Shown here: positions 3,929 through 25,587 of the stretch, piece after piece
How the letters are laid out: each line of letters starts with the position of its first letter
Position numbering within the stretch: position 1 is the first letter of the stretch
Source of the DNA: Sphingomonas sp.
GTDB taxonomy: Bacteria > Pseudomonadota > Alphaproteobacteria > Sphingomonadales > Sphingomonadaceae
Length of the DNA: 64,000 nt
Assembly (NCBI GenBank): GCA_965248885.1
Contig: OZ252211.1
Coordinates: 661,179-725,178 of the forward strand
Reading direction: 5' to 3'
Made by a program: the position numbers and the translations under genes
Notes under the pieces: model-generated
The model's input: the letters and a program-made list of their open reading frames with translations, nothing else
Told to the model about the DNA's origin: nothing
Database searches by the model: none

Positions 3929-4833
3929 ATGAAACGGATTGCTCTTGACCTCGTGTCTGTTCGTCTGGCGTTGACAATTGCAGATCATCGGAGTGTTCGG
4001 CGCGCCGCAAAAGCCGTTAAAATGAGCGAGTCGTCCATCAGCCATCGCCTGAGATCGCTGGAAGACACGCTTGCCGTTTCGCTGTTCCATCGGTCGTCGG
4101 AAGGCGTTCAGCCAACCAATGCAGGGTTTGAATTTTTTGCTCGATCACGAGAAGCGCTTCGCATTCTCGACCTGGCAATGGCGCAAGCGGCGGCAAGTAG
4201 TCGTGGTACGGCCGGGCGGCCTAGGATCGGCCTCTACACCTCGCTATCGGGTGGAAAGCTGCTGGACGCGATCCGCGAATTTTTGCGTGAACATCCCGAC
4301 ATCGAGCTTGAGTTGGTCGAGGGCAGCCGCTCGCGGATGATCGAGGGCTTGAACGCGGGCACGATCGACGTGACGGTATTGATTGGTTCACCGGATCCCG
4401 TTCTCGGTGAGGCGCTCTCCCTTTGGAGCGAGCAGGCTTTCGCGATCGTGCCGCAGACGCACCCCATCGCGAGCGAGACCGAAATTGCTTGTTGGCAGAA
4501 GAGACGTTGCTGTTCTCCACGCGGGACGCCGGTCCGGAAGCTGAAAGCGCGCTAATCGCGCGGCTGGGCGGGCCGGGCCGATGGCCCAATCGCCGGCTGC
4601 ACAGCGTTAACCGCGATACGCTTCTGACGTTAGTCGCCATGGGCCGCAGCATCGCGATGATGATCGAGTCAGACCTTGGCCATCTCCCGACGGGTGCGGT
4701 AGCGGTGCCGCTCGTCCATGCCAATGGTCGGACAAGAGAATTGCTCACGGCTTACCGTGATCCCAGCAACGACAACCCGCCGCTGCGTCGGTTCTGGTCG
4801 ATGCTGATGAGGCGCTATTCGGAAGGCGGTTGA
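3929..4833 (+). pseudogene. LysR-family regulator disrupted by a 1-bp frameshift near 4486-4490
   Basis: The HTH plus N-terminal part of the effector domain is in frame 2 (ATG 3929 ... HPIASETEI). The C-terminal part (LLAEETLLFSTRDAG...RRFWSMLMRRY) continues in frame 1 (ORF 4423..4833). The junction implies loss of one T in attgc(t)ttg. Confidence 0.7.
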
Positions 4834-5060
4834 GCAATTGGCAGGGCGCGCCTCGCCTTGGCAAAAGCGCGGTCGGACGCGATGAAACGCACCAACATTG
4901 GCGCGATCAACTTGGCGGGCTCGATGCGCGTACCGGTTTCGGTCGCGAGCACCTCTGCATAGGCTACCAGATCGCGGTGGGTCGCGGCTGGAATCTCCAG
5001 GGTCATTCGTACGGGCCGTTCGTCCGCAATCGCGCCGAGTTTGAGTTTCGTCACGCTCAA
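4815..5060 (-). CDS. DUF2274-family protein (conjugative-element associated, usually follows trbI)
   Basis: 81 aa, MSVTKLKLGAIADERPVRMTLEIPAATHRDLVAYAEVL... Immediately downstream of trbI with a 4-bp overlap, as in Trb-type ICEs. Confidence 0.75.
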   Translation of the reverse strand: MSVTKLKLGAIADERPVRMTLEIPAATHRDLVAYAEVLATETGTRIEPAKLIAPMLVRFIASDRAFAKARRALPIAQPPSE

Positions 5061-6307
5061 CCCCGGTAGGGTTCGAGGATCAGGTCACGGGTGACAATCA
5101 CGCGTACCAGGAAGCCCGGCCGCACGGTGATGGTCGGCTGGATGTCGAGCGACCGGCCGACCACCTGGCGTCCGGTCTGACTGATGCTGTCGGACGCGCC
5201 CCGACGGAGTGCCTGAGACAGGTCGTTCTTGTCGGAGGATGTGCCCGCTTCCGACCCGACGCTAAGCAACGTCGAAAGCACCGCAGCCCGGAACAGCTGC
5301 CCCCAGTGGTTATCGACTCGATCGTGAAGCCCGGCATAGCCTTCCGGATCGGTGCCCGGTTGCCGCTTCAGGACAATCGAGCGCCCGTTGGGCAGGATCA
5401 GCCGCGTCCAGACCAGGAGCGCCCGGTTCTGACCGAACGAGATCTGCGCGTCGTACTGGCCGACCAGGCGCGACCCCTGCGGGATGAGCAACGTGCGACC
5501 TGTCGGGCCGTCATAGACGTTTTCGGTGACCTGCGCGGCGATCTGGCCGGGAAGATCGGATCGCAGGCCTGTGATCATCGCGGCGGCAATGACCGCGCCC
5601 GCTTGGAGCGTGTAGGGGCTGGCCGGCGCCGCGACGCGTTCGGTGCTGACGGTATTGCGATCGACCGCGCCGTTGAGGAAGGCGAGCTTACGATCGGAGC
5701 CGGTCGGTTGGGCCGGTTGAGACCCCTCGCTCACGGGCGTCCCCATCCCCGCAAGTCCGAGCGAGGGGGCTGCCGCCCCGGCGCCAGGTTGTGCGGTTCG
5801 CGCCTCGCTGGCGAACAGCCGACTGGTCCGCGCTGCGTCTAACTCCTGGGCGACGCGCTGGCGCCGCTGCTCGGCCTGCTGCCGGGCTGGATCTGGCGGC
5901 GAGCCCGCGCTAGTCGCCATCGGCGGCGGCGGCGTGCCGGCGGCTAGCATCGGGCGACCGAGATCGCCGGGGAGCGGCGGCCCGAGCTGCGGGACCGAGC
6001 GGGGCAGCCCGCCATAGTCGCCCGGAAGGCGTGCCAGGCCGTCGGCGGTCGTCCGGTGATCGGTGGCGTAGAGCTCTTCACTCGGCGCCTTGGGGTGCGA
6101 GCCCTGGAGCGCGAACACGAGCGCGCCACCCAAGGCGACCGCCGACACGCCCGCCAGCGTCGCGAGCGCGCGCCGCGACAGCCGCATGACGCGGGGCCGC
6201 TCCGGACGCAGCCGAAACGCCGCGGACCTGTCACGCGGCGGCTCGGGAAGGTCTGTTCGGGCCGAGGGCGCGTTCGCCTCGCGGTCTTCGACGCGGTCGT
6301 CGGTCAC
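5057..6307 (-). CDS. trbI: conjugal transfer protein TrbI (VirB10 family)
   Basis: 416 aa. Pro-rich N-terminal half with a TM segment. Conserved C-terminal VirB10 domain (...LVGQYDAQISFGQNRALLVWTRLILPNGRSIVL...RPGFLVRVIVTRDLILEPY). Confidence 0.9.
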   Translation of the reverse strand: MTDDRVEDREANAPSARTDLPEPPRDRSAAFRLRPERPRVMRLSRRALATLAGVSAVALGGALVFALQGSHPKAPSEELYATDHRTTADGLARLPGDYGGLPRSVPQLGPPLPGDLGRPMLAAGTPPPPMATSAGSPPDPARQQAEQRRQRVAQELDAARTSRLFASEARTAQPGAGAAAPSLGLAGMGTPVSEGSQPAQPTGSDRKLAFLNGAVDRNTVSTERVAAPASPYTLQAGAVIAAAMITGLRSDLPGQIAAQVTENVYDGPTGRTLLIPQGSRLVGQYDAQISFGQNRALLVWTRLILPNGRSIVLKRQPGTDPEGYAGLHDRVDNHWGQLFRAAVLSTLLSVGSEAGTSSDKNDLSQALRRGASDSISQTGRQVVGRSLDIQPTITVRPGFLVRVIVTRDLILEPYRG

Positions 6308-7563
6308 GACGCGGGCCCTCCGCTTTCGCTCCGGGCGCTCGTCGCCTGCGAGGCTCCCCCGGAGCCACGCATCCGCTGAAGCGGACCGCTCCTCACCCCA
6401 TCAGTCCGGACGATCCGCACGCGCTGCTGACGCGAGCCGCCCAAGCGCAACTCGGCGGCGGCGAACAGTCGGTCGACGATCATGTGGTGGCCGCGAACGC
6501 GGTAGTTGACGAGCTCGGCGCGACCCTCGGCACCAATGATCCAGAGCGGGGGCATCTCGCCCTGTCCTATCCCGGCCGGGAATTCGATGAACACCTGGCG
6601 ACCGTCGTCGAAGGCGCGGATCGGTCGCCAGGGCACGGCATCGCCTTCGATGCGGTAGCGGAACTGCAGGTTCTCGATCGCGGTGGCGCTGCTTTCGCCG
6701 ACGGGCTGGGCGGCTTCGGCCGCAGCGTTCTGGCGACGCAGCGCGATGAGCTGGTCGGCGGCGTAGGACCAGGAGACCGACGCCATGTAGGTGCGCTCGG
6801 CGGAGCGCATCTCGAGGTGATAGGTCCGGCGATCGGTGTTGATGACGAGGTTGGTGACGAGATCGGTGCGCGACGGCTTCACGAGGATGTGGACACGCCG
6901 CGTCGGGCCGGCGCCGCTTTCGGTATCGCCGATGATCCAGCGCACCGTGTCACCGGCCGCGACCGGGCCGGTGCCGACGAGCTGTTCGTCGGGCTCCAGC
7001 GCGATGTCGGTGACCTGGCCGGGCGCGGCGTAGAGTTGATAGAGCGCGCCGTCGGCGAAGGGATAGACCTGCACGGCGTTGACGTAGCCGCTGCGCGAGG
7101 GCTGGACCCGGGCGGCGCCGTTGGCGGCTTCGACCCGCGCCCGCGGATCGGCGGGTTCGCTCGCGGGCACAGGGATCGGGCCGGGCAGCGGCATCAGCTG
7201 ACCCGGCAGGGGCAGCGGCTGTGAGATGGTGACGATCTGCACCGGCCGCGGGAGTTCGGGGGCCAGGACGGCCGGCGTCAACGGCGCATCGTAGCTGATG
7301 GTCGGGGGCGAGTATTTGTGGGCGCAGGCGGCGCCCGCGACCGAGGCACCGCCGCTGGCGAGGCCAGCGACCGCGCCGCCGGCGAGAGATGCGCCACCGG
7401 TCGCGAGCGCAGCGCCCCCGGCCAGCACGCCGCCTGCGGCGAGACCGGTGCCGATCGCGGCACCCGCGCCGAGCTGTGGGCCACCGGAGACGATACCGTT
7501 GGCGATCCCGGGTCCGAAAATCCCAAGGCCGAGCAAGGTGAGCGAGGCGAGCATGATGCCCAT
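6304..7563 (-). pseudogene. trbG: TrbL Gly-rich C-terminal tail fused in frame to a TrbG (VirB9-like) body; trbF and the TrbG signal peptide are absent
   Basis: Frame of ORF 6304..7704 taken from the internal Met. MGIMLASLTLLGLGIFGPGIANGIV plus poly-Gly/Ala matches the TrbL/VirB6 tail. It then runs without a stop into TrbG-like sequence (GYVNAVQVYPFADGALYQLYAAPGQVTDIALEPDE ... PIRAFDDGRQVFIEFP). No TrbF-like sequence appears in any frame. Confidence 0.6.
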
Positions 7564-7564
7564 C

Positions 7565-8275
7565 GCGTCCCTCGATCGTCGGTGTGGCCGGAAAGCCGGT
7601 CTTGAACTCGTCGAACAGAGTCGAGCCGATGCCGATGATGACGGCGAGGACGAGCACCTTGATGCCTGACGACATGACGTTGCCGAGCACGCGCTCGGCG
7701 GCAAACGCGGTCTTGTTGAACAGGCCGAACGGGATGAGCACGAAGCCCGCGAGCGTCGTCAGCTTGAACTCGATGAGCGTGACGAAGAGCTGGATCGCGA
7801 GGATGAAGAACGACAGCAGCACGATCACCCAGGCGAACAGCAGCACCGCGATCTGGATGAAGTTCTCGAAGAACGACACGTAGCCCACCAGGCCGGAGAT
7901 CGAATCGAGGATCGGCTTGCCCGCGTCGAGGCCGACCTGCGCGACGCGGCCGGGCCGCAGGAAATCGGCCGTCGCGAGCGAGGTTCCCGAGGCCTTCAGC
8001 CCGAGGTGCGCGAAGCTCTCGAACACGATGCGGGCAAGGTTGCCCCAATTGTTGATGATGAAGGCGAAGGCGCCGACGAACAGCACTTTCTTGACGAGGC
8101 GTGCCGGCACGTTCTCGTCGGGCGCCCACGCCCAGAACAGCGCGGCGAGCACGAGATCGATGACGATCAACGTCGCCGCCAGCCACTTCACCTCGCCCTG
8201 CAGCAGGCCAAACCCGCTGTCGATGTAGCGGGTGAAGACCTCGAGGAAGCGATCGACGACGCCGGTCCCGCCCAT
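7565..8275 (-). pseudogene. trbL: TrbL/VirB6 N-terminal 236 aa; reading frame breaks at ~7566 (extra G in gaGGGac)
   Basis: MGGTGVVDRFLEVFTRYIDSGFGLLQGEVKWLAATL... with multiple TM helices ending ...FKTGFPATPTIEG, then junk in this frame. The expected continuation DAMGIML is in the +1 frame (see 6304-7563). Confidence 0.75.
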
Positions 8276-8277
8276 GG

Positions 8278-8613
8278 TCAGCGCCCCTCTGTCGGCATGG
8301 AGACGACGGCGGGATTGGGCGCGACGGGGCGGCGATCGGGTGCGAGGAACCGACGACGGTTCTCTGCCCATGCCGCTAGGCATGCGGGGTCGTGCGCGCC
8401 CGCCTCGCCGAGACCCTGGCACCGCGCGAATTCTGCCTGTAGCGGGTCCGTCGCAACGATGTTCTCGGTGGCCTGACGTTCGGCCGACGACGTCTGATCG
8501 GTCGTCGCCATCCAGGCGGCGGCGCCGGCGAGGATGATGCCGATCAGGATCAGCACGATCAGCTTCTTGGCGGCCGGACCTTCCATCGTGCGAAATCCAA
8601 GCAAACGCCGCAC
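8278..8613 (-). CDS. TrbK-alt-like small entry-exclusion lipoprotein of Trb-type ICEs
   Basis: 111 aa with a TM/signal segment (KKLIVLILIGIILAGAAAWMA) and a conserved-looking C-terminus (DPLQAEFARCQGLGEAGAHDPACLAAWAENRRRF). Sits between the trbJ fragment and trbL as in ICE trb operons. Confidence 0.55.
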   Translation of the reverse strand: MRRLLGFRTMEGPAAKKLIVLILIGIILAGAAAWMATTDQTSSAERQATENIVATDPLQAEFARCQGLGEAGAHDPACLAAWAENRRRFLAPDRRPVAPNPAVVSMPTEGR

Positions 8614-8627
8614 CGTCGCCTCCGTCA

Positions 8628-9062
8628 GTTGTGGAACATCGTGACGGTCGTCGGCCGGTAGCCGGTCCCCGGCGTCAGGAAGCGACGGAGCTGTTCGCGC
8701 GCCTGGTCCTGCGCGGCGGCACGTTGAGCCGCTTCGAGGCTCTGCGCTCGGCCCTGCGCGGCGACCGCCGCAGTCAGGTCGGCGAGTTGCTGTGCCTGGA
8801 GCGCGAGCAACTGGTTGCCGGCTTGTGCGGCCTGCAGCGCACCAGTCGCGCCTTGGCTCGAGGAGACGAGCGCGGACATCTGGCTGCGGTTGGTGTCGAG
8901 GTTGCCGACGACGGTCGCCTGCGCGTCCAGATCACCGACAACAGCGGGCGCGGCGTACGCGACGAAGGCAAGGTCGTCTCGGCGATCGACATGAACATCC
9001 AGCGGCTCGACCGCGAGGAGCGCCGGCTGGGGCTGCGCGGCATTGGTGAGGATTTGCGCATT
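8628..9062 (-). pseudogene. trbJ: TrbJ C-terminal fragment (~145 aa); N-terminal ~100 aa and the upstream trbB-E genes are absent
   Basis: Minus-strand translation ...NAQILTNAAQPQPALLAVEPLDVHVDRRDDLAFVAYAAPAVVGDLDAQATVVGNLDTNRSQMSALVSSSQGATGALQAAQAGNQLLALQAQQLADL...RRFLTPGTGYRPTTVTMFHN is a TrbJ-like coiled-coil tail. Homology stops at ~9060, where the upstream frame becomes Arg-rich junk. Confidence 0.55.
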
Positions 9063-9512
9063 CCGCGTTCGACGACCTTTTCGTTTTCCGGCTTCGGACC
9101 GACGGCGACGCCGCCACCGGGCCTGCCGGTTCTCACGACCGATGCGGTGCTCGCTTTCGGCCGCTCGCGCACCCGCACGGACGGCGGCGATGGTGACGTG
9201 CGGCTGCTAATCGGGGATGTTGGCGGCAAAATCGATGAAGAGCTTTCGCAAATGGTGTCGCGCCGCCATTTCGAAGTTTACGTCGAGAACGATCGACTGA
9301 TGCTGCGTGTCAACGGCTCCAACGGCCTCAGGATCAACGGCAAGGCCCACGGCGTCGACACGGTCGTTCGACTCAGCGACGGCGACATCATCGCTCCGGT
9401 CGTCAAAGCGCCCGACGCCCTGACGCTGGCCGTCCGCTTTGCGCGCGAGCGCGATCAGGTGTGCGCGATCACCATAGCGCAATCGCCGGAATTCAAGGGG
9501 GCGGCGCTATGA
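8991..9512 (+). CDS. FHA-domain protein; start uncertain (ATG 8991 or TTG 9054)
   Basis: C-terminal FHA fold: AVLAFGRSRTRTDGGDGDVRLLIGDVGGKIDEELSQMVSRRHFEVYVENDRLMLRVNGSNGLRINGKAHGVDTVVRLSDGDII. Stop overlaps the kinase ATG (ATGA at 9509-9512). Confidence 0.6.
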   Translation: MNIQRLDREERRLGLRGIGEDLRIPRSTTFSFSGFGPTATPPPGLPVLTTDAVLAFGRSRTRTDGGDGDVRLLIGDVGGKIDEELSQMVSRRHFEVYVENDRLMLRVNGSNGLRINGKAHGVDTVVRLSDGDIIAPVVKAPDALTLAVRFARERDQVCAITIAQSPEFKGAAL

Positions 9513-11070
9513 TCAAATGCCTGCAATGTGGCGCCGATAATCCCGCCGGTAACACGTTTTGCCAGAATTGCGGAAAGCCCATTTTGGCTGTGGGCAGCGG
9601 CGGTGCGGCGCTGCAGACGCTAAGTGGATTGCGGACGATCGGCGGCGGCGAGACGCTGCACCACGATGCCTATCCGAAGGGCGACGTCGCAATCCTCGAG
9701 CCGGGCGCGGTATTTGCCGGCCGCTACACGATCGAATCGCGTATCGGAATCGGCGGGATGGGCGTTGTTTATCGTGCCAAGGACAAGATCGGCGACCGGA
9801 TCGTGGCGCTGAAGCTCATTCGCTCGGACCGGCTTTCCGGCGAAGACGCCGTCAGCCGGCTCAGCGCTGAAGGTGTTCTCACTCAGGATATTCGCCACAA
9901 GAACATCGTCAACGTTTACCATGTCGATCAATTCGAAGGTCAGCCATTCCTGTCGATGGAGTTCGTCGAAGGCGTGTCGCTGCGCGAATGGATCCGCAAG
10001 CAGAAGCGCGCGGGGACCGAGGTGGGCCTCATGGTGGCCGCGCGGATCGTGAACGAGGTGCTCGCTGGCCTTCAGGTCGCGCATGAGATGGGCATCGTCC
10101 ACCGTGATCTTAAACCCGAGAACATCATGCTGACGGCGGAACCGAGCGCCGACGCTGCGGCGCTCAAGATCCTTGATTTCGGCATCGCGCGCGTCGAGGC
10201 GCGGCAGGTCGTCAGTGGCACCGGCCGCGAAGGCACCGTCGAATATATGGCGCCTGAGCAAATTACCGACGCCGACAGTGCCGGCCCCGAGGCCGATTTC
10301 TACTCGCTTTCGATCATCTTTTACGAGCTGCTCGTCGGGGTGCTGCCGAAGGGGGGCTGGCAACCCCGTCGAGCGGCCGGTCCGACGTGCCGACGGGAAT
10401 CGATTCACTGATCCAGTCGGGGCTCCAGAACCGGACGGCAAGCCGTCCGCAGAGCGTCGCCGAATATCGCCAGAAACTCAACGCTGCGATCGGCAGTGCG
10501 CCGATCGGCGGAAAAAAGCGCACGGATGTCGATCGGTTCGTCGGCGGCGACGATCCGCCGAAGAAGCACAACTGGTGGATAATCGGCGGCGGTATCTTTG
10601 CTGGGTTCCTCGTGCTCGGCGTGATCGGCAACATGATCGACCAGACCGAGCCTGGGATTCTCAAAAACGGCAACGTTATAACTTCGACCGGGGGCCGTGA
10701 GGACGATCCGCCGCCGCCACCGCCGCCACCGCTGCCCAGCTATTCGCAGCTGAGCGGCCAGTGGCTCGACGGAAACGGCGCTGGCATCGCGGCCGACGTC
10801 AACGCCAACGGGACATTTTCCGGGACCGGTCGCGCAACCGATGGCACGCCGTTCACAATTCAGGGCGCTTTTTCGGGAACCGTCGCGAATTATACCGTCA
10901 CCAACACCGCCGGCGCGCTCGGCGGTCGGCTGGCGTGGGACGGCCGCAATTGCCACCTCGACTTCCGGACGCTGTATCCCAACGGCGCGATCGCCGTGCA
11001 AGGGCAGTTCCACGTCAATCACGCACCGGGAGAACCCTGTCCGGCGGGATGGGGTGCAAACGGGCCATGA
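9509..11070 (+). pseudogene. membrane Ser/Thr protein kinase (N-terminal zinc-ribbon, Hanks kinase, TM helix, extracytoplasmic domain) with a frameshift at ~10351-10368
   Basis: N-terminal zinc ribbon MIKCLQCGADNPAGNTFCQNCGKP. Kinase motifs VALKLI, HRDLKPENIML, DFGIA and APE, ending ...FYELLVGVLPKGGW in frame 2 (ORF 9461..10411). Continuation ...SDVPTGIDSLIQSGLQNRTASRPQSVAEYRQKL, TM helix WWIIGGGIFAGFLVLGVIG and a ~150-aa extracytoplasmic domain run in frame 1 (ORF 10387..11070). The break lies in the ggggggctggcaaccccg run. Confidence 0.75.
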
Positions 11071-11086
11071 CTTCAGGAGACCGAGC

Positions 11087-12028
11087 ATGACAGACAGTTG
11101 GAACGGCCATCCGCTCAACGGCTGCCTTTTCGAGGCAACACCGTCGCCTGCGCCGACGCTGGGGCTCGCGACCGGTCAGGGCGCGCTGCCGCGGCGGGTC
11201 GACCTGCGCGCTCACTGCACGCCGGTCGAGAATCAGGAAAAAACCAACAGCTGCGTTGCGAACGCTATCGTCGGCGCGCTCGAGCTGCACCAGCGCAAGG
11301 CGGGATTGCCGGTTACTGATCTATCGCGGCTGTTCCTATACTACAACGCGCGCAGCCTTTCGAAGACCGAGGGGCGGGATTGCGGCACTCACATCCATCA
11401 CGGAATGGCCGCCGTGCTCGCCTATGGCGTCTGCGAGGAACGGATGTGGCCGTTTGAAACCGCGATGGTTACGGCCCCGCCGACCGAGGCCTGTTTCAAG
11501 AATGCGACCTCCTATGAGGCGGTGCAGTTCGCGCGCACGCCGGCGGGACAGCCGGCGATGGCGGCATTGGCACAGGGGCTTCCCGTCGCGTTCGGCATCG
11601 TTTTGCCTGGCGAATGCTATACCGTTGCAGCCAAGACCGGGACGGTTCCCAATCCGGACACCATTCAGGTGCAGAGCGCGCCGAGCGGGCACGCCATGCT
11701 GATCGTCGGCTACGACATAGACGAGAAAGTCTATTTCGTCCGCAACAGTTGGGGCGCTGGCTATGGCCAGAACGGTTATATCAACGTGCCCTTCGACGTG
11801 ATGGAGCGCCACGCGCGTCCCGATCAGTTCTGGACGATCGGGGCGATCGAACAATCACCGGCGCTCAGCATTTTCGGACCGTCGGTGAAAGAGACGGTCG
11901 AGAATGCTACCGAAGGCAAACGCCCGCCGACCAAGCTCGACCTGTTGCGCGCCGAGTTGAAATCGAGCCTCGAATCGCGCCTCGGAAGTGCGCGGCAAGG
12001 CTTTGCAAGTCGGCTTCGCGGGAATTAG
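11087..12028 (+). CDS. papain-like cysteine peptidase (MEROPS C1A-like), no signal peptide
   Basis: 313 aa from ATG 11087 with an AGGAGA RBS. Catalytic Cys context VDLRAHCTPVENQEKTNSCVANAIVGALE and His/Asn context HAMLIVGYD...YFVRNSWGAGYGQNGYINVPFD. Follows the kinase after a 17-bp spacer. Confidence 0.8.
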   Translation: MTDSWNGHPLNGCLFEATPSPAPTLGLATGQGALPRRVDLRAHCTPVENQEKTNSCVANAIVGALELHQRKAGLPVTDLSRLFLYYNARSLSKTEGRDCGTHIHHGMAAVLAYGVCEERMWPFETAMVTAPPTEACFKNATSYEAVQFARTPAGQPAMAALAQGLPVAFGIVLPGECYTVAAKTGTVPNPDTIQVQSAPSGHAMLIVGYDIDEKVYFVRNSWGAGYGQNGYINVPFDVMERHARPDQFWTIGAIEQSPALSIFGPSVKETVENATEGKRPPTKLDLLRAELKSSLESRLGSARQGFASRLRGN

Positions 12029-12418
12029 ATCGTGAGTTGCCATGCTTATGATTGAGGGTGCCCGAGGCGGGACCGTGATCTACTGGAATGTCCAACGCGC
12101 GTCGCGTTCGATGGCTGATCTTCGCTTCGGTGCCCTGCGGCATCCTCTTTTCGTACTTGGCTTTCAACCTGCAGCTGATTTAGGGATTTTCGCCGGCCGA
12201 CGGCGGGGACTTGCGGCCGTTGAACGAACGATGGGCATGGGCCGCACTGGTCATGACGGTCGCTGTGGCGCCATTGACTGGAATGCGGTTTTTTCGTCGG
12301 GATCTGTCTCGTCCGGGTCGAACAATGCGGGTCGTTGCTGATCCTATCGACTGTCCGGGCCTCCGGCGCCGAGGTCGCCGTGTCGAAGGCGAACAGGCAA
12401 CGCGCTCAAGATGAACTG

Positions 12419-12673
12419 ATGCGACAGGGGCGCGCACCGGAACCAATGCAGCTCGCGCGAAACGCAGCGATGCGGACAGTCGCGAGCAGCTTTGCGACGC
12501 CGCTTCGTGCCGCAGGCATTGACGCCAGCGTTGTCGTCCGATTCATCGACCCTTCGGGACGGGAAATCATGTCCTTCCTCGACCGATCGCGCCGCATCGA
12601 GGACGTGTTGCGCAGCCGCCGCGCAGGCGCCCAGAAAATTAGGGCGTCGCGCGACGAGCCTACGGCACCCTAG
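12419..12673 (+). CDS. hypothetical small protein (weak call)
   Basis: 85 aa from the internal ATG of ORF 12335..12673 with unbiased composition (AGIDASVVVRFIDPSGREIMSFLDRSRRIEDVL). No recognisable family. Confidence 0.3.
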   Translation: MRQGRAPEPMQLARNAAMRTVASSFATPLRAAGIDASVVVRFIDPSGREIMSFLDRSRRIEDVLRSRRAGAQKIRASRDEPTAP

Positions 12674-12942
12674 TTCTGCATGATGGCCGCGCGAGCGTGC
12701 GGTTGCTTCTCTTCGGTTGTCGCTTTGCGAAGCTGGCCGGCGACCGCGCACTTCTCTCATCGGTTTTGTCGGAGCAAATGCAAAACGCGTTAAGCGGCGG
12801 CGCGATCCTCCGCCCGCATGACCGCGATCAGCGTAGATGGCGACCCCGACATGCCCGAAGAGCCGATACACGGTCCCACGACTATGTCGACGCCCCCTGT
12901 CGCACTGGGATGACTTCGCGCCCTGTTCGCCTGGCGAGGGTA

Positions 12943-13353
12943 TCACGCCCCGCTCGGGACAACTGGGATCATCCAGCCCTGCGGAAGACGGTCAAGATCG
13001 GTGGCGGCGATTACCCGCGATTCCGCGTCGAGGAATACCACCATGTACCGCGGAGGATCGGGAAATCCGAACCACAGCCGCTCGCCCATCAACCAAGTCT
13101 CACCCTCCGAAGTCGCGATCGCGTCCAACGCGTCGGCAAACATCTCCACCACCCCTCCGAAGCGAGCCCGCTCCTCTGAGTCGGGATGCCTCCAGCTGAC
13201 CATCCGGCGCTCACGAGTGGCGATGCGGAGCCGGTCGACGACAGTCTCGGCTAGGTTGCGCGGCAGAGCGAAGCCGAGCGCCGCGCCACGCGAGCGCAGC
13301 GCGCGATGCTCCGCCGTCTCGTCCGCACCCCAGAACCAGCGCCACCAGCCCAT
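12943..13353 (-). CDS. hypothetical protein
   Basis: 136-aa ORF with balanced composition (…GGVVEMFADALDAIATSEGETWLMGERLWFGFPDPPRYMVVFLDAESRVIAATDLDRLPQGWMIPV). No family recognised. Confidence 0.4.
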   Translation of the reverse strand: MGWWRWFWGADETAEHRALRSRGAALGFALPRNLAETVVDRLRIATRERRMVSWRHPDSEERARFGGVVEMFADALDAIATSEGETWLMGERLWFGFPDPPRYMVVFLDAESRVIAATDLDRLPQGWMIPVVPSGA

Positions 13354-13576
13354 CAGCTCGGCATATCCCCTCGCACCGCCCGCCGCGAGCGAGAGTTACT
13401 CATCTGGCAACCGCGTCGATCGCAATCCACAGCGCCGTGCCGGTTGGGCTGCCGATCAATGCGCTGAATGCGATATTACTATCAGAATGAATGAACGACT
13501 GCTTTGGAACAGCGGAAGCATTCAAAGAGACGGCCGACTTTGGGTCACCGTATATTTCGCGCCGATGGCGCGAGAG

Positions 13577-14263
13577 CTACCCGTGCGACGGGCTGGGATG
13601 CGGACCGTGACCTCCCGTCTTCATCCAAACTCGCGCGCCTTGTCGACCAGCCACGGCGCTTAAGTGACCGTCGTTAGGCAAGCGCAGCCAGCTCTGGACC
13701 CGCATGATTTCGCCAAAGGCGGCGCAGGTGCCTTCAAGCACCAACAGTTCGGCACCATCCGGCGTACTCAGCTCAATTGTCGTATCTGGCGCCCATACCT
13801 CGATCCGCACGCTTTCGCACCCATCCTCGAACAGCGGCACGACCGCGACTCCTGGTCGATCGAGTGCATCGCGCAGCCTGAGGGCGTGCGTGTTGATCGT
13901 CAGCGCAGCCCTGTCGCACGGATCGAACTGCCACAGCTTGACGAAAATCACACAACCGGAAGCAGAGCCAGGTCGGTGCCGCGACGTCGGCGGATTACGA
14001 ACGTAGGTACCGGCTGGATAGTCGCCGTGTTCGTCCTGGAACACACCGTCGAGAACGAAGAACTCTTCGCCGCCGCCGTGAACGTGCTCCTCGAATAGGC
14101 TGCCGGGCGCGTAGCGGACGATGGAGGTGGCGCGTGCCACCTCCCCGCCTATCCGATCGAGCATGCGCCGGTCGACACCGGGCATGGGCGATGGTGTCCA
14201 GGCGATCCTGTCGCCATGGAGCAGAACTCGTCGCGAAAAGTCGCTGTTCAATTCCATCGTCAT
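13577..14263 (-). CDS. ChrR-like bicupin domain protein
   Basis: Start taken at MTMELNSDF... Has the HGGGEEFFVLDGVF cupin motif and a second cupin half. The ORF-track N-terminal extension is discarded. Confidence 0.65.
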   Translation of the reverse strand: MTMELNSDFSRRVLLHGDRIAWTPSPMPGVDRRMLDRIGGEVARATSIVRYAPGSLFEEHVHGGGEEFFVLDGVFQDEHGDYPAGTYVRNPPTSRHRPGSASGCVIFVKLWQFDPCDRAALTINTHALRLRDALDRPGVAVVPLFEDGCESVRIEVWAPDTTIELSTPDGAELLVLEGTCAAFGEIMRVQSWLRLPNDGHLSAVAGRQGARVWMKTGGHGPHPSPSHG

Positions 14264-14291
14264 CGCTTCTCGCCGCGAGATGTCGTGCCGC

Positions 14292-15352: not shown

Positions 15353-15635
15353 CGACCGCCTAAGTCGAATGGCCATTCGTTGCTGCCCCGCAAAGCAGGG
15401 GGGTAGACAACGACCACAACGCCACACGATTTTGTCCTCGTAGGTGGAGCTGACGTTAAATCGAAGAACTACGGGTCCGCGGTCAATGTCGGCAGATTGC
15501 CTTGTCCACCCTGGAGTGAGAGACTCTAACCCGACAGCCCGAATGAGCGCGGTGAGGATCAGAACGCCCACTGACGTGACCCCCGTTTTTTCCTCCGGAT
15601 GGAACTAGAGTCTGGCCCGAAGAAGGGACGGACAG

Positions 15636-15903
15636 ATGAAGCGGAAGCAGTTTTGCCGAAGAGCATATCATCGGCATCCTGAAGGAAGCCGAAGCAGGCG
15701 CGGTGGTGACGGAGCTGTGCCGGCGGCACGGCATGTCGAGCGCGACCTATTACGCATGGAAGGCCAAGTTCGGCGGCCTGGAGGTGTCTGATGCGAAGCG
15801 GCTGCGAGCGCTCGAGGAGGAGAACGCTCGGCTCAAGCGGCTGCTGGCGGATACGATGCTCGACAACGCAGGCCTGAAGGACCTGCTATCAAAAAAATGG
15901 TAG
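15636..15903 (+). pseudogene. IS3 transposase OrfA (HTH), with an N-terminal frameshift (extra T at 15651-15654)
   Basis: ATG 15636 reads MKRKQF then goes out of frame. Downstream frame gives ...[80 protein letters not shown], the canonical IS3 OrfA. Observed TTTTGCC where TTTGCC (F-A) is expected. Confidence 0.7.
15891..15897 (+). promoter_or_regulatory. A AAA AAA slippery heptamer for programmed -1 ribosomal frameshifting (orfA to orfB)
   Basis: Sequence ctatcaAAAAAAAtggtag at the orfA/orfB overlap, the standard IS3-family frameshift signal. Confidence 0.5.
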
Positions 15904-16802
15904 CGCCCGCTGCAAAGCGCGAAGCGGTCGCGCATCTCCAGACGACGCTGGGGATGAGCGAGCGGCGGGCGTGCATGGTCGTCGGGGCGGATCGCAAGAG
16001 TATGCGGTATCGGTCGTGCCGGGCCGATGATGGCGACCTGCGGTCGCGGCTGTGCGAGCTGGCGCAAGCGCGCCGGCGGTTCGGCTATCGGCGGCTGCAC
16101 ATCCTGCTGCGGCGCGACGGCATCACGATCAACCGCAAGAAGACGCAGCGGCTTTACCGCGAAGAGGGGCTGACGGTGCGTCGCAGGAAGGGCCGGAAGC
16201 GCGCTGTCGGCGCACGGGCACCCGCACCTGTGCTGGCGCTTCCCAACCAGCGCTGGAGCCTGGACTTCGTCCACGACCAGCTGGCGACGGGTCGGCGGTT
16301 CCGCGTCCTCAACATCGTCGACGACGTGACGCGCGAGTGCCTGGCGGCGGTGGTCGATACGTCGATCTCGGGCAGACGGGTGGTGCGCGAGTTGAGCGAT
16401 CTGATCGACAGGCGCGGTGCGCCGAGGACGATCGTCAGCGACAACGGGACTGAGCTGACGTCCAACGCCGTGCTGGCATGGTCGGGCGATATGGGCATCG
16501 ACTGGCATTACATCGCGCCCGGCAAGCCGACCCAGAACGGGTTCGTCGAGAGCTTCAATGGTCGCATGCGCGACGAGCTCCTCAACGAGACGCTGTTCTT
16601 CACGATCGGTCAGGCCCGCGCGATCCTCGCCCGCTGGGCCCACGATTACAACACCGAGCGGCCACACTCGTCGCTCGGCTATGCCACCCCGGCGGCCTTC
16701 GCCGCCGAACTCGAAAAGCAACGGGCGGGGTTAACCCCGCCCGTTGCTTCACCTGCGCTCATGCGCGACAACACCGGTCGGTCTCTGGTGGCGGCTGGAT
16801 GA
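15897..16802 (+). CDS. IS3 transposase OrfB (DDE integrase core), normally made as an OrfAB fusion by -1 frameshifting
   Basis: 301 aa with rve-type motifs ([10 protein letters not shown] ... [10 protein letters not shown] ... [12 protein letters not shown] ... [12 protein letters not shown]). Starts within the A AAA AAA slippery run at 15891-15897. Confidence 0.9.
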
Positions 16803-17020
16803 AAGACGGGGGTCACGTCACCACCGCCAAGGCACTCGCAAGTGCGACGCGCAGATGATTGAACGACTGAATCCAGGGCAATTCTTGACCGTGTTGAGCG
16901 TATGGTTGTGGGTCCAGTTGCACATAGCATTTAATCGCCTGCCCCAATCTGTAACACGCCACTCGCATGGCTCGATCTGCCTTCACTGCTAATTAATGGG
17001 CAAGCCCTCTGAGTTCTTGT

Positions 17021-17767: not shown

Positions 17768-17778
17768 GCCGCCTCCCG

Positions 17779-17806: not shown

Positions 17807-17935
17807 CCCGTCAAGGACATTGCACCGGCCCGCCGGCGGCGGCGGTTGCGGGTGGAAAGAGGATAAGACTGCTCGTGGCTGTGCGGCTCCGGGTAGGCAT
17901 AGAGGGAACGCTCCACGCTATCGAGGAGCCTTGTA

Positions 17936-20080
17936 ATGTACCGCATTCACTACTTCCGTCGCGCCCTGATCCCGGCCATTGCACTTCTGGTTTCGCTGCC
18001 CGTGATGGGAGCGCTGGGTGCCAGCGCCGCGCCAGCTGCCGCTGCCGACGCCTCGGAGGGTCAGGAGGATGGCCCGCGAGCGGGCACGCTGATGTTGCGC
18101 GGTTTGAAGGCGACCGACGCTGTGCCGGCCATGCGGCTCGGTACCGACATGGATGTCACCGTATCCGGCAGCGTTGCGCGGGTGCGAGTGACGCAAGCGT
18201 TCCGCAACACGTCGGACAAGTGGATGGAGGCGGTTTATCTCTACCCGTTGCCCGACAATGGTGCGGTCGACAGCCTAAAGATGGTGGTCGGCAACCGCGT
18301 AATCGTCGGGCAGATCGAAAAGCGTGAAGCGGCGCGCGCCATCTATGAGCGAGCCAAGGCGAACGGGCAGAAGGCCGGACTGGTCGAGCAGCAGCGCCCC
18401 AACATGTTCACCAACAGCGTCGCCAATGTCGGCCCGGGCGAGACGGTGCTGATCTCGATCGAATATCAGGCGCCCGTCGCGCAAGCGAGCGGCACCTATT
18501 CGCTGCTCCTGCCGCTGGTGGTAGGTCCGCGCTATGCACCGCCGCACACGCTGCGCTCGGGCGCTGCAATGGCGGACGCAAACGCGGTCACCTCGGCGCC
18601 GGTGATGAACCCGAAGACGGGAGTCACGCTCAATCCGACCTCGGTCACCGTGCATCTCCAGCCCGGCTTCGACACGGCGAATGTGATCAGCCGTTATCAC
18701 CGCATCGTGGTCGGCGGTCGCGGGGATAGTCGCACGATCAAGCTCGCGGCCGCCAGCGTGCCGGCCGATCGCGATTTCGAGTTAAACTGGCGTTCCGCCT
18801 CGGCCGATCCGACGTTGGCGTTGTTCCGCCAGCATACGGATGACGGCGACTATGTGATGGCGACGGTCACGCCGCCTGCGGATCTCTCAAGCCTCCCTAC
18901 GCCGCCGCGCGAGATGGTGTTCGTGATCGACAATAGCGGGTCGATGGGGGGCGCGTCGATGAACGAGGCGAAGGCGAGCCTGCTGCACGCGCTGACGACG
19001 CTGCGGCCGCAGGATCACTTCAACATCATTCGGTTTGACGACACGCTCACTCAACTGTTCGACCACAGCGTCGCGGCCACGCCCGACCAGGTCGCGCTTG
19101 CAACGCGGTTCACGCAAGGGCTGGAGGCGAGCGGCGGCACCGAGATGTTGCCGGCGCTGCGCGCTGCGCTGAAGGACGCGGCGGCGAGCGGCGGGCCCGA
19201 GACGCTGCGCCAAGTGATTTTCCTCACCGACGGCGCGGTTTCGGACGAACAGGAGATGATGGCGGCGATCGGGCAGGACGGCGCGCGCAGCCATGTCTTC
19301 TTCGTCGGGATCGGCTCGGCACCGAACGACTTTCTGATGAGCCGCATGGCGACGCTGGGGCGCGGTGCCTACACCCATGTCGGCACGCCCGAAGAGGTCG
19401 CGGCGCGGATGCTGCCGTTGCTCGATATGCTTGGCCACCCTGCGATGCAGGATCTGGCCGTGAAGATCGAAGGCGCCTCGCTCGACATGACGCCGCGGAC
19501 GCTGCCCGACCTTTATGCCGGTCAGCCGCTGGTGCTGGTCGGCAAAACCAAGCATCTGTCGGGCAGAATTACGATCAGCGGCATGATCGGGGGAAAAAGC
19601 TGGGTTCGTACGATCGACCTCGCCAAGGCAGCGGAAAGCCCGGCCGTTGCGAAGCTCTGGGCGCGGCGCCGGATCGACGACATCGAGGCGGATCGTACCC
19701 TCGGGAAGATGGACGAAGCGGCCGCCGATGCCGCGATCACCGAGATCGGGCTGACGAGCGGACTGGTCACCAGCCAGACGAGCCTGATCGCGGTCGACCG
19801 GACGCCGACGCGCCCGGCCGGCGAAGGGCTGGTGAAGGAGGATTTGCCGCTCAACCTGCCCGCCGGCTGGGACTTCGACACCTTGTTCGGCGGCGAGAGT
19901 GGTCAGGCCGCGCTGCGCAATACCGACACGATGGCGGCGCGCGCTGCCGAGCAGGCGAGGCAGCTCGACCTTCCGCAGACCGCGACCGGGTTCATGGGTG
20001 CGATCGCTCAAGGCGCGGCCTTGCTACTGGTCGGGTTGTGCGGCCTGCTGCTGCTCCGCCGTCGGGGAGCGCGGGCATGA
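17936..20080 (+). CDS. marine-proteobacterial sortase target protein (VIT + vWA, C-terminal LPQTATG sorting signal, TM helix, RRRGARA tail)
   Basis: 714 aa with a signal peptide, a vWA MIDAS motif (VFVIDNSGSM) and a C-terminal LPQTATG-hydrophobic-RRRG sequence. Matches the described VIT/vWA sortase-substrate family. Confidence 0.9.
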   Translation: MYRIHYFRRALIPAIALLVSLPVMGALGASAAPAAAADASEGQEDGPRAGTLMLRGLKATDAVPAMRLGTDMDVTVSGSVARVRVTQAFRNTSDKWMEAVYLYPLPDNGAVDSLKMVVGNRVIVGQIEKREAARAIYERAKANGQKAGLVEQQRPNMFTNSVANVGPGETVLISIEYQAPVAQASGTYSLLLPLVVGPRYAPPHTLRSGAAMADANAVTSAPVMNPKTGVTLNPTSVTVHLQPGFDTANVISRYHRIVVGGRGDSRTIKLAAASVPADRDFELNWRSASADPTLALFRQHTDDGDYVMATVTPPADLSSLPTPPREMVFVIDNSGSMGGASMNEAKASLLHALTTLRPQDHFNIIRFDDTLTQLFDHSVAATPDQVALATRFTQGLEASGGTEMLPALRAALKDAAASGGPETLRQVIFLTDGAVSDEQEMMAAIGQDGARSHVFFVGIGSAPNDFLMSRMATLGRGAYTHVGTPEEVAARMLPLLDMLGHPAMQDLAVKIEGASLDMTPRTLPDLYAGQPLVLVGKTKHLSGRITISGMIGGKSWVRTIDLAKAAESPAVAKLWARRRIDDIEADRTLGKMDEAAADAAITEIGLTSGLVTSQTSLIAVDRTPTRPAGEGLVKEDLPLNLPAGWDFDTLFGGESGQAALRNTDTMAARAAEQARQLDLPQTATGFMGAIAQGAALLLVGLCGLLLLRRRGARA

Positions 20081-20691
20081 TGCGCGCTCCCGCCAACGTT
20101 GGCCGCGTCTCCGGACGCGGCCTCGCCATGATCGCGTCGGCGGTGTTGTGCGCGTTTGGCGTCCTGCAGATCGCGGCCGGGGCGCTGATCCCCGCCAAGG
20201 CGTTCGCCGCCCAGCTCCTGCTTCAGCGTGCGTTCGATCGGAGCGTTGCGCAGCACCGGCCGATAAAACCTTGGTATTGGGCGGATATGGCGCCGGTCGC
20301 CCGGATCAGCGTGCCGCGACTCGGCATCGACCGGATCGTACTGGATACGGGCTCGGGACAGGCGATGGCGTTCGGCCCGACGCTGCTCCCCGGCAGCGCG
20401 CCGCTGGGCAAGCCGGGTGTCTCAGTGATCAGCGCCCACCGTGACACCCACTTCCGGTTCCTGAAAGACGTCCGCGTTGGGGACCGGATCGACCTCGAGA
20501 GCATCGATGGGGTCCGCTGGCACTATCAGGTAATTGGAAATGACGTCGTTGCATGGGACGAGTTCGCGGTGCCGCTGCAAGGGGCGGGCAGCGCGCTGGC
20601 GTTGTCGACCTGCTATCCGTTTGACCAGATCCAACACGGACCTTTGCGCTACGTCGTGCGGGCCGCGGCAATGAATTATCGCCACCCTTAA
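20077..20691 (+). CDS. class GN (marine proteobacterial) sortase
   Basis: Start ATG overlaps the target-gene stop (ATGA). TM anchor AMIASAVLCAFGVLQIAAGAL, catalytic His context ISAHRDTHFRFLKDV and Cys context LALSTCYPFD. Confidence 0.85.
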   Translation: MMRAPANVGRVSGRGLAMIASAVLCAFGVLQIAAGALIPAKAFAAQLLLQRAFDRSVAQHRPIKPWYWADMAPVARISVPRLGIDRIVLDTGSGQAMAFGPTLLPGSAPLGKPGVSVISAHRDTHFRFLKDVRVGDRIDLESIDGVRWHYQVIGNDVVAWDEFAVPLQGAGSALALSTCYPFDQIQHGPLRYVVRAAAMNYRHP

Positions 20692-21199: not shown

Positions 21200-21525
21200 C
21201 TAAGAACCATTCCAGCCTGAGCGCTCCAGTTCATCGTAGATCGGCGTGAGGTCACGGCGCGCGGCCTCAAGCAACCCTTCCGGTGCGGGCGGAATGTCCG
21301 CCCATTTGAAGATCGCGACGTCGGTCACAATCGCGTCGATCACCGTATCGGCCTCGCGCTCCCAACGGCGCACCTGCGCGTAGCTCACAGCGTCGCGCGG
21401 GTAGAGCGCGAGATCATCATGCTTGCGATCCAGATACCCGAGAATATCGGAAGAGTTGACCACCGTCAGGTCGCCATCGATCAAAATCGGTATTTCAGCG
21501 CGCGGATTGTAGCCGGGAGGGGCGA
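21200..21525 (-). pseudogene. glutathione S-transferase fragment (C-terminal ~105 aa; the N-terminal thioredoxin-fold strands are missing)
   Basis: ...PPGYNPRAEIPILIDGDLTVVNSSDILGYLDRKHDDLALYPRDAVSYAQVRRWEREADTVIDAIV... matches the GST region from the VPvL / S.aI..YL motif onward. Upstream in frame is junk that overlaps the RND fragment. Confidence 0.55.
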
Positions 21526-21538
21526 GCGCGCACCCGCG

Positions 21539-22519
21539 ATGCGCCTCGTGTTCGACCAGGAGCGACTGCGGCTGATGGGCCTCGATCCGGCGAGCGTGGC
21601 GCGCCAGGTCACTGCGCTCGTCTCGGGCGTGACGGTGAGCCAGGCAAGGACCGGTGACCGCGTCGTCGACGTCGTCGTGCGCGCACCTGAAGTCGAGCGG
21701 CGAGGGCTCGGCCAACTCGGCGATCTGACCATCGCCAACGCGACTGGGCAGGCAATCCCGCTCAGCGCCGTCGCCCGGCTCCAGCCCGAGTTCGAGGATC
21801 CCGTGCTCATCCGTCGTAACCGCGCGCCGACGATCAGCGTGCGGGCTGATGTGCGTCAAGGCGTGCAACCACCCGACGTGACCGCGTCGATCATGCCGAA
21901 CCTCAAGGCGCTGATCGTCGGCCTGCCGGAGGGCTACGCGCTCACACCTGCGGGCGCGGTCGAGGAAGCGGGCAAGGCCAATGCTGCGCTCGCGCCCATC
22001 TTTCCGATCATGGTGCTGCTGATGCTCGCTGTGATCATGTTCCAGACGCGCAGCTTCCGCATGACCGGGCTGGTGTTCGCGACCGCACCCCTCGGGCTGG
22101 TCGGCGCGGCGCCGTCGCTCGTGCTGACCGGCGCGCCGTTCGGGTTCAATGCGATCCTCGGGTTGATCGGCCTCGCCGGGATTCTGATGGGCAACACACT
22201 GATTCTGGTCGATCAGATCGACCTGGAGAAAGCGCGCGGGCTCGATGATCGCGACGCGGTGATCGAGGCAACAGTGCGGCGCGCCCGTCCCGTCCTGCTG
22301 ACCGCGCTCGCTGCGGTTTTCGCGTTCCTGCCGCTGACGCTGTCGAGCTTCTGGGGACCGCTCGCGATCGTTCTGATCGGGGGTACTCTATTCGGCACGG
22401 CAATTACGCTGTTCTTCCTGCCCGCGCTGTATGCGTTGTGGTTTCGGGTGCGAAGGGTACGCGGCACCGATGATCAGCCGCTCACTGCTGGTCGCAAGAT
22501 TGCCAGTGCAATCGGGTAG
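21539..22519 (+). pseudogene. RND efflux transporter (AcrB/CzcA family) C-terminal ~325 aa only; ~700 N-terminal residues absent
   Basis: MRLVFDQERLRLMGLDPASVARQVTAL ... then the last TM bundle (MVLLMLAVIMFQTRSF...LIGLAGILMGNTLILVDQID...LPALYALWFRV). A full RND pump is ~1,050 aa. This abuts the GST fragment. Confidence 0.7.
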
Positions 22520-22708
22520 GCCGGTTCGGCCGGCGTACCTTCAGGCAGCTCACCGATCTCGCAACGGCCAGCGTCTCGCCCGGTCATGCCCTGCCGGAAC
22601 TATCACGCGCAGTTAATCGCGTTATTGTTCTGGAGCCACCTCATCGGGAAGGTCTCGACGCGCTCGGACGTGTCGACGATCGCGTTCCAGTATAGGAAGA
22701 CCCTTGCC

Positions 22709-23368: not shown

Positions 23369-23431
23369 ACAAAGCGGGCGGATCGAGCACGACCTCAAAG
23401 TCTCGGCTGGCTATCCGGTCGTGGTGAAGGC

Positions 23432-24010
23432 ATGATTCCAACCGAGCGGTTCGAGCAAGTTGAGGTGTCAAGCATCGCTTCGCTGCGCGCGTGGCTCGCC
23501 GCGAACTACACCCGTCCCGAAGGCGTCTGGCTCGTCCGCTACCGCAAGTCGGTACCGGACAAGTTCGTCGACCGCCTCGATGTGCTCGACGAATTACTCT
23601 GCTTCGGATGGGTCGACGGGATTGCCCGCAAGCTCGATGCGGATAGGACGATGCAGCTCGTCTTTCCGCGAAAGCAACAGGCTTGGGCGCAAAGCTACAA
23701 GGATCGTGCCGCGCGCCTCGAACGTAACGGGCGCATGGCAGCGCCAGGCCGTAACGCGATCGAGGAGTCGAAGCGTCTCGGACTCTGGGATGCCTATGCC
23801 GCGATCGACGCCTTGCTGGTTCCAGACGATTTGCGGAGGGCCCTGAGGTGCGCGCCTGCCGCCGAACTGCGGTTCGATAACGCGCCGCCTTCCTATCGTC
23901 GCAACGTTCTACGCTGGCTTGGCCAGGCGAAGCGGGCGGACACCCGGAACCGGCGTATCGAGGTGATCGTCAGCGCAGCGGCGCAGGGCATCCGCGTTCC
24001 TCAAATGTAA
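23432..24010 (+). CDS. YdeI/OmpD-associated (DUF1801-like) family protein
   Basis: 192 aa; C-terminal ...[26 protein letters not shown] is typical of the YdeI/OmdA family. Confidence 0.6.
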
Positions 24011-24034
24011 AGCGCTGCTGTCGGTGGAACCGCG

Positions 24035-24625
24035 TTCAATTCGCCCAGACCACGAACACATCGGCGATGGGGCTGTTGGTGATCCACATTTTCGAGCCCG
24101 ACAGGATATAGCCATCGGCGACAGCGCGCGCGCGTCCGCATCGCGCCCGGATTGCTGCCTGCGTCCGGTTCGGTGAGGCCGAATGCACCGATCCATTCGC
24201 CGGTCGCGAGCCTGGGCAGATAGGTTTGGCGCTGCTCTTCGGAGCCGTAAGCCCAGATGGGGTACATCACGAGGCTGGACTGCACCGACATTGCGCTGCG
24301 ATAGGCCGAGTCGACCCGCTCCACTTCACGGGCGATCAGGCCATATGTGACATAGCTGACGCCGGGACACCCATAGCCCTCTATCGTTGGGCCCAATAAC
24401 CCCGCTGCGCCGAATTTGCGCATCAGCCCCTTGTCGAACGTTTCTTCGCGGTTCGACATTTTGACGATTGGCGCAAGCTCGGCGTCGCAAAAGGCGCGCC
24501 GTGTCGCGAACCATGCGCTCCTCGTCGGTTAGCTGCGCCTCGAGCAAAAACGGGTCGGTCCAGTCGAACGACGGCCACTTCGGTGCGCTGGGGTGAGCGG
24601 TGGAGGCGGCGAATGCGGTAGCCAT
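24035..24625 (-). pseudogene. gcdH: glutaryl-CoA dehydrogenase (acyl-CoA dehydrogenase) remnant: N-terminal ~195 aa with two frameshifts and a 3' truncation
   Basis: ATG 24625 (AAGGA RBS): [44 protein letters not shown], then frame change (TTTT for expected TTTTT near 24470) to ...[75 protein letters not shown]...[19 protein letters not shown] second shift in a (CG)n run near 24150 gives ...[26 protein letters not shown], then the homology ends. Confidence 0.75.
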
Positions 24626-25584: not shown

Positions 25585-25587
25585 GGC

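Follow-up and report, generated by a model that had tools for sequence, protein, structure and literature searches.

Frameshifts in the accessory part of a Sphingomonas chromosomal segment are very probably marks of decay in acquired DNA

Introduction

When several reading frames are broken within a short stretch of an assembled bacterial genome, are the genes dead in the organism or is the sequence wrong? The question is raised by a segment of 64,000 nucleotides (nt) from Sphingomonas sp. (assembly GCA_965248885.1, contig OZ252211.1, positions 661,179 to 725,178), which was analysed as a whole, is here called the window, and supplies all of the coordinates given below. A preliminary description, based on the letters of this one sequence, had listed six frameshifts at homopolymers or simple repeats in five genes, namely a LysR-family regulator, trbL, a Ser/Thr kinase, the orfA gene of an IS3-family insertion sequence (IS) and gcdH, which encodes glutaryl-CoA dehydrogenase. 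It had placed them all in the accessory part of the window and had taken this asymmetry to argue for slipped-strand pseudogenisation of a decaying island rather than uniform sequencing error. Comparison with related DNA and proteins bears out the disruption of all five genes, each close to where it had been placed, together with the asymmetry and its interpretation; it revises the nature of three or four of the six lesions. Our principal conclusion is that these loci are very probably genuine pseudogenes in decaying accessory DNA and not the product of uniform sequencing error. Genuine decay is favoured because four of the seven small insertions and deletions (indels) now recognized lie in genes that deletions have also truncated and because several of them are not homopolymer events.

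Results

Seven small indels (-7, +1, -1, +1, +1, -2 and -2 nt) were counted in the window, together with a single nonsense codon, an IS insertion and no fewer than six truncations or deletions. Four of the small indels are deletions and three are insertions, and with at least six large deletions in addition, it is these larger events, not frameshifts, that are the dominant lesion. The six frameshifts listed previously are indeed all in the accessory part, but that list lacked the seventh, a T5 to T6 change at 12289-12294, as well as a TAG codon at 12181 and the truncations. All seven indels, about one per 3.5 kb, fall within the 38.75% of the window that has no synteny to relatives (P = 0.0013), and four of the seven fall inside the 1.8 kb that is occupied by independently truncated genes (P ~2e-5 for the whole window and ~9e-4 within the accessory part). 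Several of the frameshifted genes or their neighbours have been truncated by deletions of at least 0.6 kb, at least one of which occurred at a microhomology. For LysR, trbL, the kinase, gcdH and a hypothetical gene, homologues align in at least two frames while the query remains contiguous, and for IS3 orfA the shift is seen in a DNA alignment. The indels were seen against related DNA in LysR and trbL (contigs L086 and L087, 81-90% identity) and in gcdH and the kinase (L088 and L089 respectively, 73-76%), while the precise base affected in the T run and in IS3 orfA was reconstructed and not read off related DNA. A plot of G+C at third codon positions was too noisy for frame calls.

The extent of the accessory part was set by synteny. 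Loci of relatives were collected by a genome scan with a transketolase query, taking one genome per species; this returned sphingomonad relatives only, with at most 76% amino-acid identity, which makes them useful for synteny only. The translated open reading frames (ORFs) of 40 such loci match the window solely within 24809-33722, the start of a conserved syntenic core composed of a small ORF, fthC, a 6S RNA gene, tkt, gap, pgk and the genes that follow (ORF coverage, NCBIfam and Rfam), and position 24809 therefore marks the right edge of the accessory region. None of the genes of the left half was found in the fthC/tkt flanks of the 40 genomes, and since the matches are also confined to the interval just given, the left 24.8 kb is non-syntenic accessory DNA. 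The stretch from 24.8 to 64 kb belongs to the conserved chromosome of a Sphingomonadales member and carries the housekeeping genes fthC, 6S RNA, tkt, gap, pgk, fba, a split metH, metF, folC, accD, trpA, trpB, trpF, pyrF, rsmI and hemW. G+C content ranges from 61 to 72% across the window, in which no tRNA gene was found.

With good confidence, the segment from 1 to 24.8 kb is likely to be a patchwork of DNA that was acquired horizontally and is now decaying by mutation. Its parts are a trb-type conjugative remnant, a module consisting of broken FHA and kinase genes, a C1 peptidase gene and broken hypothetical and DUF4230 genes, the IS3 insertion, and stubs of acrB and gcdH, with apparently intact accessory genes between them. 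The region is several unrelated remnants joined by deletions, and the single island of the preliminary description has to be given up. One may ask instead whether these are ancestral chromosomal genes being lost from a reductive genome. The chromosome is small for a sphingomonad, at about 3 Mb of contig, and gcdH and acrB are, respectively, a metabolic and an efflux gene of a common kind, as such a loss would have it. However, no left-half gene lies beside fthC/tkt in the 40 related genomes, the core half is without decay, and the trb genes, the IS3 element and the residence of the closest relatives on plasmids or contigs resembling integrative and conjugative elements (ICEs) are marks of mobile DNA. 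Decay of native genes is accordingly unlikely.

The integrity of the core provides the contrast on which the asymmetry depends. For about 22 core genes, NCBIfam families are matched from end to end in a single frame, in agreement with the earlier report that some 35 core genes checked were intact. The core half contains 16 homopolymers of at least six bases, 49 of five bases and about 50 (GC)n tracts of at least four units, and no frameshifts. Methionine synthase is encoded there by two adjacent ORFs in different frames on the reverse strand (42746-45331 and 45473-46600), which match positions 8-354 and 351-1230 of a 1234-position hidden Markov model (HMM). A reading of this split metH as a core pseudogene was rejected: the two parts cover the model as just given, and a distant Ferrovibrio genome (L048, 9807-13501) is split in the same manner, so that this looks like a natural two-gene arrangement.

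Among the frameshifted genes, the gcdH stub (24037-24625, reverse strand) presents a clear picture of slippage. It retains residues 1 to about 197 of about 395, as judged from Pfam, an alignment with Protein Data Bank structures, 25 homologues and the L088 DNA, and is spread over three reading frames. Both shifts are 2-nt losses, one in GGCGCGCC (24493-24500) and the other in (GC)5 (24124-24133), located with the 25 homologues and the L088 DNA. Re-use of two bases at each junction gives a reconstructed protein that needs no gaps when aligned with the 25 homologues or with residues 8-187 of 399 in solved GcdH structures. Two shifts, one of them a change in a (CG)n repeat, had been described before; the T5 to T4 loss proposed for one of the sites is rejected, since the resulting frame change would be in the opposite sense. 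In the same part of the window lies an acrB-type fragment of an RND transporter (21419-22519, forward strand) that covers only HMM positions 711-1019 of 1021 in Pfam, and no further acrB fragments were found upstream in any forward frame (Pfam, three-frame translations of 20.65-21.45 kb).

The hypothetical gene with the seventh indel (12088-12390, forward strand), recognized by tblastn and by codon reading, is a homologue of L089 8572-9180 and has lost its 3' end to a deletion. It carries the TAG nonsense codon (12181-12183) where the homologue has Tyr, and the +1 event in its T run. The second tblastn segment of this gene was first suspected to be spurious, and about 35 initial residues were accepted on reading the alignment. 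The deletion has fused the stub to a DUF4230 gene fragment (12362-12637, forward strand) that retains residues 141-231 of 231, that is, the last 91 codons (tblastn, 66% identity).

These two stubs are the right-hand end of a larger unit. Allosphingosinicella metagenome contigs (L089, and L090 at 2602-13599) carry a conserved series of genes for a Zn-ribbon protein, an FHA protein, a Zn-ribbon Ser/Thr kinase, a C1 papain-like peptidase, a hypothetical protein and DUF4230, followed by a TPR-CHAT protein, and the segment 8925-12637 is a degraded copy of this FHA-kinase-peptidase module. At its left end, adjoining the stub of trbJ, is an FHA-domain fragment (8925-9512, forward strand) corresponding only to residues 188-380 of a 382-residue homologue (Pfam; tblastn with the L089 protein, 78% identity). 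The kinase pseudogene follows (9509-11070, forward strand), with a Zn ribbon and transmembrane and extracellular parts. Pfam Pkinase matches positions 1-196 of 263 in the first frame, and after about 10364 the C-lobe, the transmembrane segment and the extracellular part continue in another frame. The 18 homologues compared read LPxGGWQPPSSGR at this point and the first frame of the window retains GGWQP; together with the L089 DNA alignment they show that one base has been lost from two proline codons, CCNCCG, leaving C4 at 10364-10367. The frame change and the C4 had been noted previously. The neighbouring G6 run (10351-10356), which had been named with the C4 as a possible lesion, is rejected, as it is intact and GGWQP is conserved in the homologues. 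The peptidase gene (11087-12028, forward strand) is itself intact, aligning over residues 1-312 of 312 in a single frame with 76% identity (Pfam, tblastn). When 12.0-13.7 kb was translated in six frames with the stops masked and searched with Pfam, no further fragments came to light.

The LysR and trbL lesions belong to a remnant of about 5 kb (3926-8922) of a trb-type (MPF_T) conjugative element, in the order LysR', DUF2274, trbI, trbG', a deleted trbF, trbL', trbK and trbJ', primes denoting damaged genes. The metagenomic contig L086, which is 87-90% identical at the DNA level over LysR, DUF2274, trbI, trbG, trbL, trbK and trbJ, carries the intact operon LysR, DUF2274, trbI, trbG, trbF, trbL, trbK, trbJ, trbE, trbD, trbC, trbB, and aligns with the window in two blastn blocks, 3926-7351 and 7326-8922. 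The gene order of the remnant is the same as in trb-type (MPF_T, P-type) ICEs and plasmids (trbB-C-D-E-J-K-L-F-G-I-DUF2274-LysR), examples used for comparison being L086, the Paracoccus plasmid NZ_CP098363 and the Indioceanicola plasmid NZ_CP030129.

The LysR pseudogene (3929-4833, forward strand) is the terminal conserved gene of the remnant. The match to Pfam LysR_substrate is divided between two frames: that of 3929 covers model positions 2-96 and ends at nt 4486, and a second, beginning at nt 4492, covers positions 101-207. All 15 homologues (72-84% identity) have two extra residues at the junction. DNA alignment with L086 and L087, the contigs of two of these homologues, resolves the lesion as a loss of 7 nt at 4491/4492, GCTTG[GGAGCGG]TTGG, where the deleted bases lie between TG microhomologies; the TTT to TT change assumed earlier does not hold. 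The trbL pseudogene (7334-8275, reverse strand) has both a 1-nt insertion and a 3' truncation. TrbL proteins from two plasmids align by tblastn with residues 1-236 at 8275-7571 and with residue 237 onward from 7569 in another frame, and in 1.6 kb of alignment with L086, here 90% identical, the sole gap is one extra C, CC to CCC, at 7569-7571 of the forward strand. In the sense of the gene this is GG to GGG, precisely the change that had been proposed.

The truncation of trbL results from a 1,065-base-pair (bp) deletion (L086 13338-14403), the junction of which, at 7326-7351, was located from the overlapping blastn blocks and a base-by-base comparison. The crossover lies at a near-repeat microhomology, AGGCGGCG/AGGCTGCG, and the deletion removed the 5' end of trbG, all of trbF and about 350 nt from the 3' end of trbL; no TrbF match was found in the window by tblastn. 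What remains of trbG (6304-7333, reverse strand) lacks about the first 10-20 codons with the signal peptide and is fused in frame to the tail of trbL, only residues 21-341 being matched by tblastn and the L086 alignment stopping at 13338 within trbG. At the other end, trbJ (8625-8922, reverse strand) is a 3' fragment of about the last 100 of 250 codons (tblastn residues 156-256 only), and the similarity to L086 ends at 8922. The genes that survive without damage are the intact trbI (5057-6307, reverse strand; Pfam TrbI 1-188 of 188, tblastn residues 9-382 in a single frame), a trbK-like entry-exclusion gene with an open frame (8278-8613, reverse strand; tblastn, collinear with L086 and gap-free) and the intact DUF2274 gene with a GTG start (4887-5054, reverse strand; tblastn, collinear with L086). 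At the trbI-DUF2274 junction (5052-5059) there is one intergenic base fewer than in L086, and the DUF2274 start is GTG where L086 has ATG; the frames are unaffected. Neither trbE, D, C and B with the rest of the conjugative element nor a relaxase, coupling protein or integrase is present in the window. Compared with complete trb elements, the remnant amounts to about 5 kb only and three of its surviving genes are broken. Only trbI and trbK are full length among the trb genes, trbF, trbB-E and the 5' end of trbJ are absent and trbL and trbG are damaged, and the remnant cannot be a functional transfer system.

The remaining indel is in an IS3-family (IS407-like) element of 1,249 bp (15572-16820, forward strand), delimited by megablast to plasmid copies, alignment and inspection of its ends. 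It has the features of its family: perfect terminal inverted repeats of 15 bp starting TGACGTGACC, a 4-bp target duplication, CCAC, at 15568-15571 and 16821-16824, orfA and orfB, an A-rich slippery site and a DDE transposase. In length, inverted repeats, target duplication and the arrangement of orfA and orfB with an A7 site it is the same as IS3 elements of the IS407 group, and plasmids of Polymorphobacter, Sphingomonas and Sphingobium carry copies that are 84-89% identical to it. The A7 programmed-frameshift site at 15891-15897 is normal and orfB is intact. Within TTTTGCC at 15651-15657, in codon 7 of orfA, there is one extra base, which puts the DNA-binding N-terminus out of frame. The sequence at this point is TTTTCGGAAGAG in three related copies and TTTTGCCGAAGAG in the window, and the T4 run is common to all of them. 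The extra base proposed before is real, and a TTT to TTTT change is not supported as its origin; by the fewest-change reconstruction the inserted base would be a G. The break in the orfA frame at this codon makes it improbable that the copy is autonomous. It is by this extra base that the element differs from the others of the IS407 group. The closest plasmid copy (L003, Polymorphobacter, NZ_CP080242, about 366-400) carries a +1 of its own, GAAGGAG against GAAGAG, some 12 nt from the insertion in the window, and its annotated coding sequence starts downstream of that +1. Among the four IS copies compared there are therefore two independent frameshifts in codons 7-10, the other two copies being intact there. 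It is very doubtful that elements of this IS407-like type are recurrently inactivated or attenuated at the 5' end of orfA. If the pair were not a coincidence, it might point to a hot spot of mutation or to selection favouring IS copies with a dead transposase.

To what extent are the indels associated with repeats? In windows of 6-9 nt, the background is such that runs of at least two bases occur in 84-93%, of at least three in 28-36%, of at least four in 7-10% and of at least six in 0.5-0.6%, while (GC)n tracts of at least four units occur in 1.2-1.5%. Runs of two or three bases are commonplace on this scale, and the TT and GG/GGG contexts are therefore uninformative; the C4, T6 and (GC)≥4 contexts are rare, at 0.5-10% of windows. 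Roughly half of the events are truly associated with repeats; the others are not. Slippage, taken as an indel of one repeat unit in an ancestral tract, fits both gcdH sites, each of which loses exactly one GC unit, and the T5 to T6 change, which alters a homopolymer by one. The kinase lesion, possibly C5 to C4, is a possible fit, which depends on the third base of one proline codon. In contrast, the LysR deletion is of 7 nt, the IS3 insertion lies in a run identical to that of its relatives and the trbL change cannot be told from a random insertion. The slipped-strand mechanism proposed for all of the sites consequently fits some of them only.

Short repeats might also be thought to act as reversible switches or as sites of programmed frameshifting, particularly as some of the indels do lie within them and as IS3 elements do use a programmed -1 frameshift, for which the A7 site is present here. 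Typical contingency loci have far longer tracts than the 4-6 nt or 3-5 dinucleotide units found in the window. Moreover, the affected genes are truncated or stand in dismantled operons, their homologues are encoded in a single frame and the IS3 lesion at codon 7 is away from the orfA/orfB overlap. Functional recoding or phase variation is hardly credible as an explanation.

There remains the proposal that the indels are consensus errors of a long-read assembly and that the genes are intact in the organism. Several considerations speak for it and so weigh against genuine decay. The evidence is confined to a single assembled sequence of the strain. The source genome is apparently a single contig of 2.99 Mb, which suggests long-read data, and a protein identical to the truncated kinase product is found on a contig of 2,987,862 bp without a source protein accession, consistent with long-read assembly and with a pseudogene flag. 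Residual errors in such assemblies are mostly short homopolymer indels (PMC12007338), and three of the 1-nt events touch runs of 3-6 identical bases; three or four of them (the kinase C run, T6, trbL CCC and IS3) could individually be errors. The kinase in particular retains all of its catalytic motifs, and its lesion is for this reason either very recent or artefactual. Finally, the closest relatives are 61-90% identical, and the ancestral state at some sites (the kinase CCN and IS3) was inferred. Against the proposal, homopolymer errors should be of 1 nt and indifferent to the category of gene, while three of the seven events are of 2 or 7 nt, the 7-nt deletion and the two 2-nt (GC)n deletions being atypical of such errors, and all seven are in accessory genes. 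Long homopolymers and (GC)n tracts are more numerous in the core half, and yet no frameshift occurs there. One of the indels is found together with a nonsense substitution, and four of them lie in genes that deletions of hundreds of bases have also truncated (P ~2e-5). Error is very unlikely to account for the set as a whole. That it lies behind at least one of the 1-nt events is a smaller claim and, although improbable, is appreciably easier to accept.

Other features of the window deserve brief mention. The left boundary of the accessory region is outside the window, and positions 1-3890 hold small accessory genes that are intact: a SnoaL-like/DUF4440 gene, two LysR regulators, an FMN reductase and a DoxX gene. 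Between 17021 and 20691 there is an apparently intact "marine proteobacterial sortase" system, with an XRE regulator, a VIT-VWA sortase-target protein (17936-20080) and the sortase (20038-20691), the DNA of which is 73% identical to Novosphingobium resinovorum plasmids. In the core, the 6S (SsrS) RNA gene (25571-25727, reverse strand; Rfam 48.1 bits against a gathering threshold of 46.4) is directly upstream of that for 5-formyltetrahydrofolate cyclo-ligase (25012-25584), an order that is the classical ssrS-ygfA arrangement.

Discussion

As a whole, these results favour genuine decay of acquired DNA, and a plausible sequence of events can be suggested. The acquired elements would have lost function, probably through large deletions first, so that selection was relaxed. 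Small indels may then have built up by replication slippage at the (GC)n tracts, the T run and possibly the C run, while microhomology-mediated deletion would have added further lesions and one nonsense substitution would also have arisen. Throughout, purifying selection would have preserved the adjacent core genes.

The phenomenon is ordinary and already known. In prokaryotes, pseudogenes are enriched among horizontally transferred genes, a pattern described as "failed horizontal transfer" (Liu, Harrison, Kunin and Gerstein 2004, PMC522871). The window resembles what is known of failed-transfer pseudogenes and of deletional decay in that the disabled genes cluster in acquired DNA without synteny, show frameshifts, nonsense codons and truncations, carry more deletions than insertions and have intact core genes as neighbours. 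It differs from that survey in being one local instance rather than genome-wide, and otherwise there is no substantive difference.

A practical lesson concerns the diagnosis of such lesions. Contexts of indels that are guessed from a single sequence are unreliable: of the six sites in the preliminary description, three or four received another diagnosis once relatives were compared, the specific reconstructions given for them having been wrong. The finding implies no new biology. What it does bear on is annotation, in which the loci should be labelled as pseudogenes or as remnants of a degraded conjugative element and of other acquired modules, neither to be "corrected" as sequencing errors nor to be counted as functional genes.

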